Shown: piece after piece, positions 12,465 through 62,018 of the stretch | Layout of the letters: the number at the start of each line of letters is the position of its first letter | Numbering within the stretch: the first letter of the stretch is position 1 | Source: a virus | Length of the DNA: 64,000 nt | Virus record (IMG/VR): IMGVR_UViG_3300011113_000642 | Coordinates: 30,855 to 94,854 of that record | Reading direction: 5' to 3' (one strand) | Notes under the pieces: generated by a model | Seen by the model: only the letters and a program-made list of their open reading frames with translations | Told to the model about the DNA's origin: nothing | Databases searched by the model: none | Position numbers and translations under genes: made by a program

Positions 12465-12478
12465 GGATAAATAATAGT

Positions 12479-29301: not shown

Positions 29302-31019
29302 TTGAATTTTTATCTGTTCGTTTTAAAAACTTTGGTTCATTCGGGGCTAACTTTTCTGAAATTAATTTAAATAGCCGTAATACCACATTAGTGACTGGTA
29401 CAAATGGCCACGGAAAGTCCTTTGCTTTATTGGACTCTTTGTGCTTTGGATTGTTTGGAAAGCCCTTTAGGCCCATTAACATACCTCAATTAGTAAATAC
29501 TGTAAATGGTAAGAACTGTGTCGTTGAAATAGAGTTTAATAAGGGTAATAGTCATTATTTAATTCGTCGTGGTTTATCCCCAAAAATTTTTGAAATTTAT
29601 AAGGATAAAGAACTTATAGATCAAAATGCCAAATCCAAAGATTATCAAGAAATGTTTGAAGAACAAATTCTTGGATTTGATTATTCTGCATTCAAACAAG
29701 TAGTCATTCTTGGTAAGTCTAACTTTATACCTTTCATGCAGCTAACGCCTGCAGAGCGCAGAAAGATTATTGAAGGTTTACTGGAATTAGATATTCTTGC
29801 TGATATGAATGTCTATGTTAGAGGACAACTAGGTTCTTTAAAAGTTTCTATTGCAGAGCATGACAGTTTACTTAAAATTGCACATGAAAAAATAAAGTCT
29901 CAAAAAGAATTTATTGATCAGGTAAAAACAAGTAATGCTGATGATATTAAACTTTTAGAAGATAGAATTAAAGAATATCGCGACCAAATAAAAGAAGACA
30001 CCAAACAAAAAACCATTTTACTAAGTAAGCATACCGCTTTACAAGATACTGCAAAAAGTATTAAGAAAAAAATTGACGCTTTAAAAGATGTTCCTGGTAT
30101 GTTATTAAAAGCAGAAACACTTAAAGAAACAATCTTAGATGAGATTAAAACTTTAGAGCAAAATGCTATATGCAAGTGCTGTGGCCAATCTTTACCAGAA
30201 GAACAAAGAAAAAAACATATAGCAGAAAAAAGAGAAAAAGCAGAAAACTGCTTTGAGGCTTTAAAGGTTGCTACAAGAAAAACTAAAGAACTGGATGAAT
30301 TAAACAAATCTTATAATGAACTTTTGCCAGAAATAGAAACTTTGGCAAATGATATAAATGGTTACAGTTATAGAATTGGCAATAGTGAATCCAATATAAA
30401 AGTTTTGGAAAAAGATAAAAAGGATAAAGAAGCAGCAAACAACCTGACTAATTTACTAGTCAGTTTGAAAGATTCCGAGGATAAAAAGAATGAACTTGCA
30501 CAAAAATTGGAAGGCTATATTCAAGAACAAATTCATCATGATGTTGTATATGATATTCTCAAAGATAGTGGACTTAAGAGCAGGATTATTAAACACTATG
30601 TTCCCATCATCAATGGACTCGTCAACAAGTTCCTCGGAAAACTTAATCTCTATGTTGACTTCACCATCGATGAGGAGTTCAAGGAAACAATCAAGTCACG
30701 ATACAGAGATGCATTCTCATATTCCTCTTTCTCTGAGGGAGAGAAACAACGCATCGACCTTGCCATACTGTTAACTTGGCGAGAAATTGCAAAGATGAAA
30801 AACAGTTTAAACTGCAATCTTTTAATTTTTGATGAAATTTTAGATTCATCTTTGGATGCTGCTGGTACAGAGGCTTTCTTAAAAATTCTTAATAAAATGA
30901 AAAATAAGTGTTCTATTTTCATCATTAGCCACAAAGCAGATCAACTTATTGATAAATTTGATCAATCATTGCAGTTTGAAAAGAAAAATAATTTTTCTAA
31001 GATTAAAACACAGATATAA
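29298..31019 (+). CDS. gp46: recombination ATPase gp46 (Rad50/SbcC-like)
   Basis: GTNGHGKS, CxxC hook, FSEGEKQRIDLA, DEILDSSLD. Confidence 0.96.
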   Translation: MIEFLSVRFKNFGSFGANFSEINLNSRNTTLVTGTNGHGKSFALLDSLCFGLFGKPFRPINIPQLVNTVNGKNCVVEIEFNKGNSHYLIRRGLSPKIFEIYKDKELIDQNAKSKDYQEMFEEQILGFDYSAFKQVVILGKSNFIPFMQLTPAERRKIIEGLLELDILADMNVYVRGQLGSLKVSIAEHDSLLKIAHEKIKSQKEFIDQVKTSNADDIKLLEDRIKEYRDQIKEDTKQKTILLSKHTALQDTAKSIKKKIDALKDVPGMLLKAETLKETILDEIKTLEQNAICKCCGQSLPEEQRKKHIAEKREKAENCFEALKVATRKTKELDELNKSYNELLPEIETLANDINGYSYRIGNSESNIKVLEKDKKDKEAANNLTNLLVSLKDSEDKKNELAQKLEGYIQEQIHHDVVYDILKDSGLKSRIIKHYVPIINGLVNKFLGKLNLYVDFTIDEEFKETIKSRYRDAFSYSSFSEGEKQRIDLAILLTWREIAKMKNSLNCNLLIFDEILDSSLDAAGTEAFLKILNKMKNKCSIFIISHKADQLIDKFDQSLQFEKKNNFSKIKTQI

Positions 31020-56841: not shown

Positions 56842-58731
56842 ATGGCAGAAATTTTATCCCCGTTTCAATCGTTTATTTTTATCTCTCGCTATTCCCGTTG
56901 GCTTCCAGACTACAATCGTAGAGAAAGCTGGGAGGAATGTGTTGAGCGTTGGTGGAATTACTTTACAAACAAAGTTCCTCAACTCGCAGAACGCCCTGAT
57001 GTGAAAGAAGCAATTCTTAATCTTGAAGTTCTTCCATCTATGCGTAGTCTAATGACCGCTGGACCGGCATTGGATCACGATAATACTTGTTTGTACAATT
57101 GTTCTTATTTGCCAATTGATTCTCTTGAATCGTTTGCCGAGTTGTTTGTTATTTTGATGAACGGTACAGGCGTTGGTTATTCTGTTGAACGCCAGTATAC
57201 GGATAAACTTCCTATTGTTGCAAACAAAATTGAAAAAGAATTTAACATCGTTTATGTTGTTGAAGACTCCAAAGAAGGTTGGGGAAACTCTGTTAAATTT
57301 TTGATGGATCATTTGTATGCTGGTCGGCACGTCAAATGGGATCTGAGTAAGATTCGTCCTGCAGGCGCAAGACTTAAGACATTTGGTGGTCGTGCTAGTG
57401 GCCCAGCACCACTTGATAATTTATTTAAATTTCTTGTCAAGGTTTTTTACAATGCTCAGGGGCGCAGACTTACTGCTCTTGAGTGCCACGACATTTGCTG
57501 TGCCATTGCAAATGCTGTAATCGTTGGTGGTGTTCGTCGTTCTGCCATGATTTCTTTGAGCGATCTTGCAGATCGTGAAATGGCTCACTGCAAGAGCGGT
57601 GCATGGTGGGAGCAAGCGGGATTCCGTTCTTATGCAAACAACTCTGCTGTATACCGTGGTCGTCCGCCAATGGGCCAGTTCCTAGAAGAATGGACTTCTC
57701 TTTACAACAGTCACAGTGGTGAACGTGGAATGATTAATCGTAAGGCCCTTCAAGATCAGGCTTCTAAATGGGGCCGCGATGAAAACTGTGAGTACGGAAC
57801 AAATCCATGCTCTGAGATCATTTTAAAGCCATTTGAGTTTTGCAATCTTTCAACCGTTGTAGTTCGTCCCGATGACACGGCAGCAACTTTAAAAAAGAAG
57901 ATTGAAATAGCAACAATTATTGGAACTGTTCAGTCTACATTTGTAAACTTCCCATACCTTCGTCCTGAGTGGAAGAAAAACTGTGAAGAAGAAAGACTGC
58001 TTGGCGTAAGCATGACTGGTATTTATGACAACAAACTTACCAGCGGTCTTGAGGGTAAACCAAAGTTAATTCGTCTACTTGAAAGCCTACGGGATCAGGC
58101 AACTGCTACAAATCTCAAGTGGGCAGAGAAACTTGGAATCAATCCTAGCAAGTCTATTACTTGTGTTAAGCCAGAGGGCACAACTTCTTGCTTGGTAGAT
58201 TCTGCGTCTGGATTGCACCCAAGGTACGCTGATTATTATTATCGTCGTATTCGCATTGACAAAAAGGATCCAATCTATAATCTTATGAAGGATCAAGGTG
58301 TACCCTGTGAAGACGATGTAATTAATCCAGGTAACACTGCTGTCTTCACCTTTGCTATGAAGGCCCCAAGAGGAACAGTTACAACTGAAGATCTTCGTGC
58401 TCTAGATCATTTGGATCTTTGGAAGACTTACCAAGAGCATTACTGCCACCATAAGCCATCTATCACTGTAAACTACCGTGATTCAGAATTCCTTGAGGTT
58501 GGTCAGTGGCTTTGGGAAAACTTTGATGTTGCAACCGGCATTTCATTCTTGCCCGGTGGTGATAGCCACACCTATGCTCAAGCCCCCTTTGAGCAGATTG
58601 ATTCTGCCACTTATGCTGCACATCCAAAGGTTAAAGTTAACTTTAAAGATCTCTCTAAATATGAGGCCGAAGATAACACCGAGGCTGCAAAAGAATTTGC
58701 ATGCAGCGCAGGAGGTTGTCAGATAGTGTGA
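56842..58731 (+). CDS. nrdJ: class II (adenosylcobalamin-dependent) ribonucleotide reductase
   Basis: YNCSY, GTGVG, GGVRRSA, TNPCSE, VKPEGT, C-terminal CSAGGC; no beta-subunit gene adjacent. Confidence 0.92.
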   Translation: MAEILSPFQSFIFISRYSRWLPDYNRRESWEECVERWWNYFTNKVPQLAERPDVKEAILNLEVLPSMRSLMTAGPALDHDNTCLYNCSYLPIDSLESFAELFVILMNGTGVGYSVERQYTDKLPIVANKIEKEFNIVYVVEDSKEGWGNSVKFLMDHLYAGRHVKWDLSKIRPAGARLKTFGGRASGPAPLDNLFKFLVKVFYNAQGRRLTALECHDICCAIANAVIVGGVRRSAMISLSDLADREMAHCKSGAWWEQAGFRSYANNSAVYRGRPPMGQFLEEWTSLYNSHSGERGMINRKALQDQASKWGRDENCEYGTNPCSEIILKPFEFCNLSTVVVRPDDTAATLKKKIEIATIIGTVQSTFVNFPYLRPEWKKNCEEERLLGVSMTGIYDNKLTSGLEGKPKLIRLLESLRDQATATNLKWAEKLGINPSKSITCVKPEGTTSCLVDSASGLHPRYADYYYRRIRIDKKDPIYNLMKDQGVPCEDDVINPGNTAVFTFAMKAPRGTVTTEDLRALDHLDLWKTYQEHYCHHKPSITVNYRDSEFLEVGQWLWENFDVATGISFLPGGDSHTYAQAPFEQIDSATYAAHPKVKVNFKDLSKYEAEDNTEAAKEFACSAGGCQIV

Positions 58732-58738
58732 CATAAAT

Positions 58739-58811
58739 TCCTCTGTAGCTCAGTAGGTAGAGCGGGAAGCTGTTAACTTCCATGTCACTGGTTCGATTCC
58801 AGTCGGAGGAG
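58739..58811 (+). tRNA. tRNA-Asn (GTT), no encoded CCA
   Basis: Acceptor TCCTCTG/CGGAGGA, anticodon arm GGAAG-CTGTTAA-CTTCC, T-loop GGTTCGATTCC. Confidence 0.95.
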
Positions 58812-58818
58812 TATAAAT

Positions 58819-58851
58819 AAAAAATTTCACCCAAAAGGTGAAATTTTTTTT
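58819..58851 (+). terminator. hairpin/terminator after the tRNA
   Basis: AAAAATTTCACC-CAAAA-GGTGAAATTTTT followed by T-tract. Confidence 0.75.
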
Positions 58852-58862
58852 CATAAATATTT

Positions 58863-58955
58863 TTGTCAGGGATGGTGGGTTAGTTCCACGTAATCTTTTT
58901 GGAGTTCTTCGAAGTAGTCTCCATCGTATTACTAAGGAACGACCATCTCTGGCAA
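58863..58955 (+). ncRNA. candidate structured ncRNA (rod-like, ~93 nt)
   Basis: 14-bp closing stem with 2 G-U pairs plus three nested 5-bp helices; CATAAATA immediately upstream. Confidence 0.6.
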
Positions 58956-58969
58956 CGGTATAAATAATT

Positions 58970-59518
58970 ATGTTCACCATGTTAGTCGGCATTGATTATT
59001 CTATAACCAGCCCAGCAATCTGTCTTTTTGATGAAAAGCGAGAATTTTCTTTCTCCAATTGCTCTTTTTACTTTTTAACGAATACTAAAAAGTATGCCAC
59101 AAAAATTGCTCCAAATATTAATGGAGAGGGTTTTGAGGAGTATGCCTACGATACTGAAAGATTTGATACAATTTCAGAGTGGGCTGCAAATTTGTGTATT
59201 GGAGCTGCAGACGTAGCAATTGAGGGCTACGCATACGGGGCACATGGCAAAATTTTTAATTTAGCCGAGAACTGTGGAATTTTGAAATACAAGCTCCATA
59301 AGCTCGCCGTTCCCGTGACGGTCGTGGAGCCCTCCCGCGTCAAGAAACTCGCCACAGGCAAAGGTAACGCTGATAAACAGGCAATGTATGAAGCCTTCAA
59401 GACCGAGACGGGAATAGATTTAGTTCAAATTTTTGAGCAAAAATCTTTAAATAATCCGGTCACGGATATTATCGACAGTTACTATATTTTAAAACATTTG
59501 GTCCAAGCAAAAATTTAA
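58970..59518 (+). CDS. RuvC-like Holliday junction resolvase/nuclease
   Basis: GIDYSITSPA, AIEGYAYG, KKLATGKGNADK, DIIDSY; TATAAATA at 58959. Confidence 0.8.
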   Translation: MFTMLVGIDYSITSPAICLFDEKREFSFSNCSFYFLTNTKKYATKIAPNINGEGFEEYAYDTERFDTISEWAANLCIGAADVAIEGYAYGAHGKIFNLAENCGILKYKLHKLAVPVTVVEPSRVKKLATGKGNADKQAMYEAFKTETGIDLVQIFEQKSLNNPVTDIIDSYYILKHLVQAKI

Positions 59519-59820
59519 CGGACAACTCTTCCAGCATTCATTCTGGCACTGTGATCCAATTTTTCATGGAATCGCTTTGGTACTTGACCACTGCTTTTAA
59601 TTTTGTCAATAACCTCTTTAAATTGGCTACCTACAACTTTTTGAGGAGTCAAAGTTGCATCCATTGCAAGAGATGGGGTGCTAGCACCCCAATCACGAAT
59701 AATCTTTTTCTTTTTGCACTTGGGGCAAGGCTTTTTTAAAGGCTCATCTCTATTTGAGAGGCTTAACATTTCATCAAATGTATGTTCACATTTTTCACAT
59801 TTAAAAGCATAATTAGGCAT
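59515..59820 (-). CDS. FmdB-family zinc-ribbon protein
   Basis: MPNYAFKCEKCEHTF...CPKC. Confidence 0.82.
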   Translation of the reverse strand: MPNYAFKCEKCEHTFDEMLSLSNRDEPLKKPCPKCKKKKIIRDWGASTPSLAMDATLTPQKVVGSQFKEVIDKIKSSGQVPKRFHEKLDHSARMNAGRVVR

Positions 59821-60310
59821 TTTTGTTTCTCTTAAAAGTAATTAGCATGTGATCAAACAAGAATCCATAAGAAGGCTCTTTTGGTTTATTTTTAATTTCC
59901 ATTTTGGCTTCTTTGGGAGTCCTATTGCCTTTAGACAAATTGCAAGGTTTACATGCAGCAACCATGTTTGTCCATGTCGATCCACCACCACGACAACGAG
60001 GTACAATATGATCTATTGTGGCAGTTTTATCGCAAAGATCTTTGCCACAATATTGGCAAACATATTGATCCCGGTGAAATACATTTCTACGGGTCGGAGG
60101 AACCTTTTTAAAAGGTAGTTTGACGTAATATTTAAGAATTAAAATTTTAGGAATTTTAACAATTTTTGATACTGAAATCAATTCATAAAATTCTGGACTT
60201 GTTTCATCAATCCAAACTTTATCATTTGACATTAACTTAAAAGCTTTGCCGACAGTGATAATATTCAGGGGGGTATTGTCTTGGTTGAGCAAGAGTACTT
60301 GCTTTTTCAT
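59813..60310 (-). CDS. HNH endonuclease (McrA-like)
   Basis: VLLLN, RD...CQYCG, TIDHIVP..RGG..TW.N.VAAC..CN..KG; start moved to ATG 60310. Confidence 0.9.
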   Translation of the reverse strand: MKKQVLLLNQDNTPLNIITVGKAFKLMSNDKVWIDETSPEFYELISVSKIVKIPKILILKYYVKLPFKKVPPTRRNVFHRDQYVCQYCGKDLCDKTATIDHIVPRCRGGGSTWTNMVAACKPCNLSKGNRTPKEAKMEIKNKPKEPSYGFLFDHMLITFKRNKNA

Positions 60311-60320
60311 ACCTTTTAAG

Positions 60321-60340
60321 TATTTATGAAAATCTAAATA
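60321..60340. promoter_or_regulatory. back-to-back late promoters
   Basis: CATAAATA on the minus strand (60321-60328) and TCTAAATA on the plus strand (60333-60340). Confidence 0.55.
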
Positions 60341-60350
60341 TTTTACAGCC

Positions 60351-62018
60351 ATGGATAATAAAAACGATAGAAAATTTTATTGGGAAGTTAAAGATTTTAT
60401 GACTTCACGGAATACACATAACCCTATTCCGTCATACACACCAAAACCAAGTATTGCTGACCAAGCAAAAATAATTTTGGAAAAGAAACAGAATCTTCCA
60501 TCAAAGCCTTTGGAAGTTAATAATACCATAATGAATGCTGCTTGTCAAGTAATTGGTAGGCACCAAAAACAAGAATCCGGCTACGACCCTAAATCTCAGG
60601 CTTTTAGTAAAAATAGTGATGTTAATAGTTTTAGAGGAATGAATGAGGGATATTGGGAAGATTTTAAAGCAGGGTTAGCAGAAGTGGGTAACTTTAAAAC
60701 AAATATTATTGGAAAAGGTCAAGGAGCTGGGAGTTATAATGCAATGCTTCCAATGACAGCAGACGAGTCTAGACAAAAAGCTTCTTTAAGGCGAGCAGGG
60801 CAAGCATTAAATTTAAATGCACGACAATTAAATTTACAACAAGTGGCAAATCCGGGATTGGTAAAACAATCTGATGTTACTAATTTACTTTCTCAAAAAA
60901 CATCTTCTGGTGTAAATTTGCTTGGTGATGCTGATCGCCAAAAAGCAAATGATTTATTTGGTAACTTAGTTGCACAAGAGTTTGAAGATAAAAAGAGTAC
61001 TTCGACAGCAATTGCCGGTGTTGATACAGAAGGGCCACCCTCCAGTTTAAGTGGCTCTCCAACAACTACTGGAGCTTTTGGTATGTCAACACCATCTTTT
61101 GGTGGTGATGTCAGCGATAAAACAAAAGGTTTACTTGCATCTATGGATGCCAAAAAAGTCAGCACAGCTTCTCCTACACCAACAAATGCTGGAGATATTG
61201 ATAAATCGCAAAATTTGAAAAAAGAAAAACGCCGACAACAAACAGCAGAAAGATTGGGAAGAGATCTTGAAAGATTGAGAGGTAAAGATGTTTCTCAATT
61301 AACCGATCTCGAAAAAGTAAAGTTAAGACTTGCACAAGAGCGATTATCTTCTGATTCAGAAATGGCAGAAAGAGTAAAAAAATTAACTGCTCGCGGTGGG
61401 CCTGTACCTCAAGGGCCGACTCCCAGCGGTGGTAATTTAGGTGATGACGAAGATTTAGTTGGCAGAACTTTAAATTTAACGAAAGATCAAACACAAATAG
61501 CCAGAGCAAGAAGAGTGGATGCTGCAGACAGTGATGAACGTATTTCTGGCTCATCTATGTCTTATGGACAATTTCACAATTTAACTGGTCGTAAATATGA
61601 TGCTTTTAGTGATTTGGATCGTAAAATTGTCATTAATATGGCTGGCGGGGGAAAATTAACTCCAGGAAATTATAATCCAAATCAAATGAGTCAAGGTGAA
61701 GCAGGATTTATGACTGGAGCAAATTATGCGTTTAGAGCAAATGAAAGAGAACGTACAGCTAATGCGGCAGCATTTAGACAACAAGATGCAGCAGCAAAAC
61801 AACAGGAACTAGAAAATACACCAGAATATAAAGAAGCTCAAAGAAAACAAGCAGCCCAAAATAGAGCTAATTTAGAAGCAGAAGTTGAGGGAGATCTTGC
61901 TAAAGAATATGGTGTAGACACTGAAACAATAAGAAGAGCTAGAACTGCGGGTGTAAATCCAAGAGATTTAGCAAATCAATCACAACAATCAAGACCAAGC
62001 CCAATGCAACAAACTTAA
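60351..62018 (+). CDS. large low-complexity hypothetical protein, possibly head-internal
   Basis: 555-aa ORF rich in Q/A/S/G behind a late-promoter-like site. Confidence 0.7.
   Translation: MDNKNDRKFYWEVKDFMTSRNTHNPIPSYTPKPSIADQAKIILEKKQNLPSKPLEVNNTIMNAACQVIGRHQKQESGYDPKSQAFSKNSDVNSFRGMNEGYWEDFKAGLAEVGNFKTNIIGKGQGAGSYNAMLPMTADESRQKASLRRAGQALNLNARQLNLQQVANPGLVKQSDVTNLLSQKTSSGVNLLGDADRQKANDLFGNLVAQEFEDKKSTSTAIAGVDTEGPPSSLSGSPTTTGAFGMSTPSFGGDVSDKTKGLLASMDAKKVSTASPTPTNAGDIDKSQNLKKEKRRQQTAERLGRDLERLRGKDVSQLTDLEKVKLRLAQERLSSDSEMAERVKKLTARGGPVPQGPTPSGGNLGDDEDLVGRTLNLTKDQTQIARARRVDAADSDERISGSSMSYGQFHNLTGRKYDAFSDLDRKIVINMAGGGKLTPGNYNPNQMSQGEAGFMTGANYAFRANERERTANAAAFRQQDAAAKQQELENTPEYKEAQRKQAAQNRANLEAEVEGDLAKEYGVDTETIRRARTAGVNPRDLANQSQQSRPSPMQQT

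Follow-up and report, generated by a model that had tools for sequence, protein, structure and literature searches.

A 64,000-nucleotide stretch of viral DNA (positions 30,855 to 94,854 of IMG/VR virus record IMGVR_UViG_3300011113_000642), which as a whole we call the window, carries just upstream of a gene for a RuvC-like Holliday junction resolvase a predicted hairpin that is real: a folded RNA of about 93 bases from an uncatalogued family. This element, here called the rod (58863-58955, plus strand), is built of four helices, an architecture that is recovered by RNAfold, by folding of single sequences and by covariation among its relatives. The structured RNA is read from the plus strand, is conserved and covaries, and represents a new family, with no match in Rfam. 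As to its function, we favour, tentatively, a cis-acting, protein-binding leader module of the late resolvase transcript.

A stable four-helix rod on the plus strand

The basal helix of the rod, P1, joins TTGTCAGGGATGGT (58863-58876) to ACCATCTCTGGCAA (58942-58955) in 14 base pairs, two of which are G-U pairs (T58866-G58952 and G58870-T58948), with a further pair between 58878 and 58940. Above it stand P2 (58884-58887 with 58936-58939), P3 (GTAAT/ATTAC, 58890-58894 with 58928-58932) and P4 (TGGAG/CTCCA, 58900-58904 with 58919-58923), capped by an apical loop of 14 nucleotides (58905-58918) that holds TCGAAGTA at 58909-58916. The pairings given in the first-pass annotation, made from the sequence alone, are all present at their coordinates, and RNAfold returns this structure, with P2 as TTCC/GGAA. 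A conserved pyrimidine internal loop (58895-58899) reads CUUUU in the window and CCUUU or CUCUU in relatives. Directly 3' of P1 lies a conserved RRGGU tail, CGGT in the window (58956-58959), whose GGT is invariant in alignment A1. The G-G mismatch in P1 (58877, 58941) is specific to the window; in locus L002, which encodes a 100% identical resolvase protein, and in others the 3' base is C, giving a G-C pair.

Comparison with shuffled sequences had been set beforehand as a check on the fold. As plus-strand RNA the rod reached -34.1 kcal/mol against a shuffle mean of -21.4 (z -3.94), and 0 of 200 shuffles were as good. The minus-strand RNA folded more weakly (-25.7 kcal/mol, z -2.96). DNA parameters gave weaker folds, at -13.8 kcal/mol for the plus strand (z -3.2) and -10.6 kcal/mol for the minus strand (z -1.6). 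The rod had also been described as richer in GC than other intergenic DNA, which holds only weakly: at a GC content of about 0.39 it exceeds no more than some AT-rich spacers (0.22-0.33) and is similar to the adjoining coding DNA.

We then compared the rod with known RNAs. When Rfam 15 was run over the 64-kb window, tRNA-Asn was the sole hit to pass its gathering score, and at E <= 10 over 58600-59200 no plus-strand match spanned the rod, partial overlaps lying far below their gathering scores; the families covered include tRNA, signal recognition particle (SRP) RNA, 6S, Y RNA, T-box, the hatchet, pistol and twister ribozymes, and HEARO. ARAGORN likewise found tRNA-Asn (58738-58812) alone, and the rod is not a tRNA, so the proposed lack of tRNA and SRP signatures was borne out. 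DNA comparison with cultured phages gave matches to the tRNA only, the rod itself yielding chance-level matches. Two further candidates were rejected. The rod is not a small protein gene: open reading frames (ORFs) of 41 (+) and 80 (-) amino acids have no family match, and single-base insertions or deletions among close relatives break both frames. Pairing of the CCUUUU loop with the AAGG tail to form a pseudoknot was judged sterically implausible, as about 25 bp would lie between the two.

Covariation across three diverged subfamilies

Homologues were gathered from 80 IMG/VR loci found through the resolvase protein and from IMG/VR scans with two element patterns that do not depend on the gene. 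The element is present in more than 60 IMG/VR phage contigs and falls into three subfamilies with very different stem sequences. In the two subfamilies that share the layout of the window, the stems are unlike at most positions, and each sequence by itself folds into the same four-helix rod; independent folding gave this architecture for 36 sequences and also for the third subfamily. When a covariance model was trained on one subfamily, it recovered the second at E values of 1e-11 to 1e-18, and the same model revealed the third, more diverged subfamily (E about 1e-5 to 1e-8) at loci where the element had appeared to be missing.

Within the first subfamily, 94.8% of the cells at paired positions are paired, compared with 29-56% when the partners are slid against each other. 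Across 49 distinct sequences from all three subfamilies, the figure is 91.6% against 35-55% in slid controls, with compensatory double changes at 25 of the 29 pairs. The covariation score of this set is 0.541, compared with 0.08-0.15 for slid partners, and 0 of 500 shuffles reach 0.541. This alignment was fitted to the covariance model, which favours the structure; the independent single-sequence folds gave the same helices, and so did MAFFT and RNAalifold applied to the third subfamily alone. Among the 25 inner pairs, G-U cells number 58 and A-C cells 9, and this excess of G-U over A-C indicates that the plus strand is the one under selection. The substitution pattern, as read from these alignments, is that of an RNA.

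Conservation in the rod is highest in its unpaired segments: the apical loop, UC(G/U)AAG(U)A; the 5' side of the upper internal loop, CCUUU/CUCUU; and an AGG near P2. The apical-loop motif UCGAAGUA (58909-58916) is near-invariant and is kept across all three subfamilies, the CCUUUU internal loop varies hardly at all, and in alignment A1 the apical-loop columns T58, C59, A61, A62, G63 and A65 are invariant.

The constant partner is a downstream resolvase gene

In every locus found, the element lies on the same strand as, and upstream of, the RuvC-like gene. Two subfamilies share one layout, which runs 5' to 3' through a box nATAAATA, TTTT(T/A)G, the rod, RRGGT, TATAAATA, three variable bases and the resolvase ATG. 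The loci fall into three arrangements. In the majority (a), the rod stands directly before the resolvase gene, whose ATG follows the second box by 3 nucleotides. In arrangement (b), found in loci L087, L100, L110, L131, L156, L304 and L307, the rod heads a packed operon of three genes, and the resolvase gene comes last, about 2.4 kb downstream. Here the second box is retained 10-14 nucleotides before the next ATG. In L304 and L307 this box has shifted by 20 nucleotides while RRGGT remains with the rod, which identifies the second box as the promoter of the following gene and assigns the tail to the rod. The inserted genes encode proteins of about 244, 396 and 175 amino acids (L087:635-3616, minus strand; equivalents in L100, L110, L131 and L156), for which there was no Pfam match and a single weak PHROG match, to a family of unknown function. 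Together they make up an alternative late operon. In arrangement (c), that of the third subfamily, the rod lies about 0.6 kb upstream of the resolvase gene.

What lies upstream varies: tRNA-Asn or an HNH gene, each with a terminator; a divergent gene; or other genes, only some of which have a terminator. The association with a tRNA or an HNH gene that the first-pass annotation had drawn is therefore accidental, and the constant partner of the element is the downstream RuvC-like gene or operon. Copy number was one in each of the 94.8-kb record, a 135.8-kb contig and a 117-kb contig, and one per locus in about 130 loci; since the element is single in all genomes checked, a multi-copy or mobile repeat was rejected. 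A host or prophage origin was also rejected, as none of the 120 bacterial-genome core-motif matches listed passed the covariance model. Neither of two covariance models found the element in 80 marine Mosig-like RuvC loci or in the Mosig locus itself. The carriers are a group of uncultured T4-like phages, probably from freshwater.

Promoter geometry and the inferred transcript

Two late-type promoter boxes flank the rod on the plus strand of the window, as had been described: CATAAATA at 58852-58859, whose TAAATA columns are invariant in alignments A1 and A2, and TATAAATA at 58959-58966, 3 nucleotides before the first ATG of the resolvase gene. Throughout the flanked subfamilies there is no variation in TAAATA, in the TT that follows or in the G six bases downstream of the box. 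Transcription from T4 late promoters begins some six bases past TATAAATA, and the G at 58865 in the window (G14, invariant in 36 sequences) would accordingly be the first transcribed base. Mapped 5' ends are mentioned in the T4 literature (PMC3014915). With this G at the base of P1, the transcript would begin flush with the stem. A stem beginning within 0-2 nucleotides of the 5' end would thus be a property of the flanked rods, and not of the subfamily embedded in an ORF. The proposal that the rod has its own late promoter is strengthened by L011 and L017, where a divergent gene for 372-375 amino acids starts only about 26 nucleotides upstream of the box, making that box the sole promoter candidate for the rod; a scan of the window found no sigma-70-like site at the element.

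The proposal of a discrete transcript of about 93 nucleotides fared less well. There is no T-tract after the rod, and no terminator-like site was found between rod and resolvase gene in the window, the nearby plus-strand call being a 5-bp stem within the rod itself; moreover, one subfamily lies within an ORF and has no promoter of its own. With no terminator to stop transcription, the rod would become the 5' leader of the resolvase mRNA.

Elsewhere in the window, ATAAATA boxes occur 3-21 nucleotides before start codons, and those 3-10 nucleotides before starts are at 12467, 37509, 40767, 43517 and 58960 (plus strand) and at 60327 (minus strand). If transcription starts about six nucleotides after the box, such spacing would leave late genes with very short leaders or none, and with no Shine-Dalgarno sequence. 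The resolvase gene itself begins M-F-x-M (58970-58981), and the freshwater clade has kept both Met1 and Met4. From a box only 3 nucleotides before the ATG, a transcript would start at about the G of that first ATG, so that only Met4 would be usable from it; by analogy with T4 gene 49, the two promoters could give two nested resolvase starts.

A subfamily embedded in a peptidase gene

In arrangement (c) the rod has no flanking boxes and lies in frame within the ORF of a protein of about 280 amino acids (L024:2074-2985; also L016, L049, L062, L070, L072, L077, L079, L080 and L324). This protein has a lipoprotein-type signal peptide with a lipobox and a trypsin-like protease domain (GDSGG), and the rod encodes the linker between them. 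The peptidase frame is open through the rod in all members of the embedded subfamily; since in several of them no other start codon is available downstream of the rod, the protease must be translated through it. The frame used by this subfamily has stops in the window sequence.

The 3' arm of P1 is invariant and encodes the conserved DRYSCVG; in the 5' arm, A and G replace each other, giving G-U pairs. P3 is either UCAU/AUGA or UGCG/CGCA, and its switch is accompanied by amino-acid changes of S to A and EHDE to KSAE. As these compensatory changes alter the protein, the fold is selected even at a cost to protein sequence. About 135 nucleotides upstream of the rod, a late box stands before the peptidase start, and the peptidase stop codon falls within the late box of the resolvase gene. 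All three arrangements thus place the rod in the first 150 or so nucleotides of a late transcription unit in which the resolvase gene comes last.

Genomic setting and the RuvC-like protein

The window is part of a 94.8-kb IMG/VR viral contig that represents about half a genome. Upstream of the element it encodes a class II ribonucleotide reductase, ThyX and a primase, followed nearer the rod by tRNA-Asn and, as the earlier description had it, by a terminator. This is a bidirectional intrinsic terminator hairpin flanked by A and T runs (58819-58849, plus strand) that separates the tRNA from the rod and is context, not part of the RNA; terminators occupy the equivalent position in many homologous loci.

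The RuvC-like Holliday junction resolvase gene (58970-59518, plus strand) encodes 182 amino acids and was assigned by its match to phrog_159 (E 6e-28), by AlphaFold and by Foldseek. Its catalytic residues D9, E85, D166 and D169 are intact and invariant among homologues (alignment A6). The AlphaFold2 model has a predicted local distance difference test (pLDDT) score of 88.9; its best Foldseek matches are bacterial RuvC proteins (E 3e-10, template-modelling score 0.6-0.7), followed in the same output by the RuvC domains of IsrB, IscB and IS621 (E 4e-5 to 7e-4). As modelled, the protein consists of a plain RuvC fold and carries no additional domain. By resolvase protein, the closest cultured phage is Pelagibacter phage Mosig (Kyanoviridae), at 48% identity. 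Genes for a Zn-ribbon protein (FmdB-like, PF09723) and an HNH endonuclease (59515-60352, minus strand) run convergently into the end of the resolvase gene, and the Zn-ribbon gene adjoins the resolvase gene in L087 too.

A proposed leader of the late resolvase transcript

According to the leader reading that we tentatively prefer, the late transcript would begin, in the window and in two of the three subfamilies, with RNA polymerase starting at the late-type box at 58852-58859. The first base would be the invariant G six bases downstream, and the RNA would begin flush with a basal helix of 16 bp, making the rod the 5'-terminal leader of a late mRNA whose last gene is the RuvC-like resolvase. 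That mRNA would hold the resolvase gene alone, or behind one to three inserted genes. The stable hairpin flush with the 5' end may shield or mark the late transcript, and the invariant loops, UCGAAGUA and CCUUUU, may serve as the docking site for a protein that sets how the transcript is used; masking of the ribosome-binding site would play no part. Consistent with such a leader, the distance from rod to resolvase gene is 0 nucleotides, about 0.6 kb or about 2.4 kb through a packed operon. T4-type phages have hairpins and late promoters ahead of late nuclease genes (PMC3014915; PMC2988022), and the hairpin of seg43(25) abuts the ribosome-binding site and does not mask it (PMC2988022).

Several observations weigh against a leader. 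A second late box stands between rod and gene, so the resolvase gene can be transcribed with no leader at all. The embedded rod lies about 130 nucleotides inside a translated ORF with no adjacent box, and there too the resolvase gene has a box of its own. Three relatives, L031 (94 kb), L041 (5.6 kb) and L022 (12.5 kb), have an intact resolvase gene and its box and no element; their resolvases are about 72% identical, the order is reductase, terminator, box and resolvase with no tRNA, and in the related contig L031 no rod was found anywhere in its 94 kb. Finally, four helices and invariant loops are more than a simple stabiliser would require.

Known systems offer partial parallels. The 5'-terminal stabiliser hairpins of the ompA leader and the T7 gene 10 leader resemble the rod as we place it, with a stem that would start at the first transcribed base, then an AU-rich single-stranded stretch and the start codon; unlike the rod, those hairpins are short and simple and have no conserved loops, and the third subfamily of the rod is internal to an mRNA. 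RNase III processing hairpins occur between T7 genes, and with these the rod shares an irregular form with internal loops, a polycistronic phage transcript and some 20 stacked pairs in P1 and P2; the conserved apical loop of the rod sets it apart from them. The promoter-early stem-loop (PeSL) cassettes of T4-type phages, which recur as near-identical copies and combine early sigma-70 promoters with simple stem-loops, are like the rod a module of promoter and stem-loop at a variable gene-cassette boundary, whereas the rod is single-copy and four-helix, with a late-type box and no sigma-70-like site.

To our knowledge, a defined role has yet to be assigned to any structured RNA of this size, trans- or cis-acting, in T4-type phages, and the literature on T4 itself reports no characterised regulatory RNA (PMC3014915). 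Hairpins combined with late promoters are found at the T4-type genes e, soc, 49, I-TevI/II/III, segB and mobE, and at seg43(25) of Aeromonas phage 25 (PMC3014915; PMC2988022). The rod resembles them in its setting, a T4-like phage in which a late nuclease gene has a box of the TATAAATA type beside its start codon and, just ahead of this, a very stable hairpin; and it resembles seg43(25) in that it abuts the ribosome site and does not include it. It differs in its length of about 93 nucleotides, its four helices, its invariant loops and the late box of its own in front; it also leaves the Shine-Dalgarno site and AUG unmasked, heads other genes and can sit within an ORF. T4 RNA C and RNA D are stable small RNAs from the tRNA region whose role is unexplained (PMC3014915). 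The rod is likewise a small structured RNA of a T4-type phage, in the window beside a tRNA gene; no sequence or Rfam relationship with them was found, however, and the tRNA neighbour of the rod is not conserved.

Alternative explanations

The chief competitor of the leader is a free trans-acting RNA, which we regard as possible and rather less probable. The rod would then be a stand-alone, stable late RNA, either a decoy or sponge for a protein or a regulator using its loops, transcribed from its own box and set free either by an RNase or through weak termination in the AU-rich stretch that follows, with the third subfamily cut from the peptidase mRNA. This would suit a promoter box with a flush start, a downstream gene whose separate box can move by 20 nucleotides with no change to the rod, loops that are invariant, a function that seems independent of local gene context and an element that relatives can dispense with for their resolvase gene. 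Yet there is no terminator; one subfamily lacks its own promoter and is read through by ribosomes; and the element keeps strictly to its place and orientation upstream of the resolvase gene. Nor was a conserved complementary target found nearby: the complement of the apical loop, TACTTCGA, is present a single time in the window, as often as chance would give, and relatives do not conserve it.

A role in DNA appears improbable. Here the element would act as a strand-specific single-stranded DNA hairpin, as a signal for replication or priming or as an attC-like recombination site at a cassette boundary. The presence of the rod in coding and non-coding DNA alike, the cassette-like variation of the genes on both sides and the retention of structure and unpaired bases while sequence diverges all fit this idea, and the plus-strand DNA hairpin does beat its shuffles (z -3.2). 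At -13.8 kcal/mol that hairpin is weak, however, and the G-U-rich substitutions are typical of RNA; the promoter box and invariant start G would be left unexplained, the element is single-copy, and no gene for an integrase, a Rep or a HUH protein was noticed in the annotated ORFs nearby.

Translational masking as at T4 gene e, gene 49 or I-TevI, whereby long transcripts would hide the resolvase start and transcripts from the proximal box would escape, is very unlikely. It is suggested by a late nuclease gene with a proximal late box and an intact catalytic tetrad (compare PMC3014915) and by the window's box and AUG, which can pair with codons 10-16 in a 14-bp hairpin (58956-59010) worth an extra -9 kcal/mol. 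The proximal box at 58959-58966 is 3' of the whole rod, and its transcripts would lack the rod; the rod is, however, itself preceded by another late-type box. But the rod ends at 58955, 14 nucleotides before the AUG at 58970, and leaves that AUG free; the start-region hairpin is limited to the closest relatives of the window, others forming different structures or none; the rod loops pair with the start region worse than shuffles do (mean z +0.61); and the rod also heads other genes.

We give still less credence to a selfish palindromic insertion, like a miniature inverted-repeat transposable element (MITE) or a Rickettsia palindromic element, that has no phage function and duplicated the 8-bp late box on insertion. 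Such elements are palindromes of about 100 nucleotides that can sit in frame within protein-coding genes, and in size, palindromy and in-frame siting the rod is like them. It is an imperfect inverted repeat between direct repeats of (T)ATAAATA, and one subfamily is an in-frame insert in a linker-coding region; the arms of P1 can be read as the inverted repeats and the two ATAAATA boxes as the duplication, but the arms covary with a G-U bias. Unlike those elements, the rod is single-copy at a syntenic site, and compensatory changes in all four helices together with the asymmetry between G-U and A-C show selection on a folded single strand. The embedded subfamily moreover has no flanking direct repeat, the loops are invariant and no transposase is present.

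Comparably slim is the chance that the rod is a functional RNA partner of the recombination machinery, as cofactor, regulator or decoy for the RuvC-like resolvase or for a host junction- or RNA-processing protein. Known RNA genes just upstream of RuvC-fold enzymes are those of the IscB omega RNA and the IS110 bridge RNA, and by analogy with these such a partner might be encoded ahead of the RuvC-fold gene and kept even within a translated gene, though this version too is most doubtful. In its narrowest form, a cofactor or guide of the nuclease, the idea is the least likely of all: the RNA does stand immediately upstream of the RuvC-fold gene in most loci, and Foldseek does list the IsrB, IscB and IS621 domains, but the protein is a minimal canonical resolvase that has the RuvC core only and best matches bacterial RuvC, the unpaired segments of the rod are its most conserved parts and not variable and guide-like, the RNA is apart from the gene in two arrangements and missing from relatives with an intact gene such as L031, and marine homologues of the protein have no RNA. 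The direct partnership with the nuclease that had been suggested is thus unlikely.

Significance

We regard the rod family as a structured RNA of phage late transcripts that is associated with nuclease genes and is unusual in that the same fold is kept as a leader, as the head of an operon and within coding sequence. With about 50 distinct sequences, dense covariation and precise promoter geometry, it provides a well-defined test case. It also constitutes a natural experiment, in which one fold is found in three settings: a 5' leader, the head of a longer operon and a protein-coding linker that accepts amino-acid changes so that base pairs are preserved. In a widespread group of uncultured, probably freshwater T4-like phages, the rod points to the way in which late transcription accommodates the gene for a Holliday junction resolvase, a late nuclease that could be dangerous.
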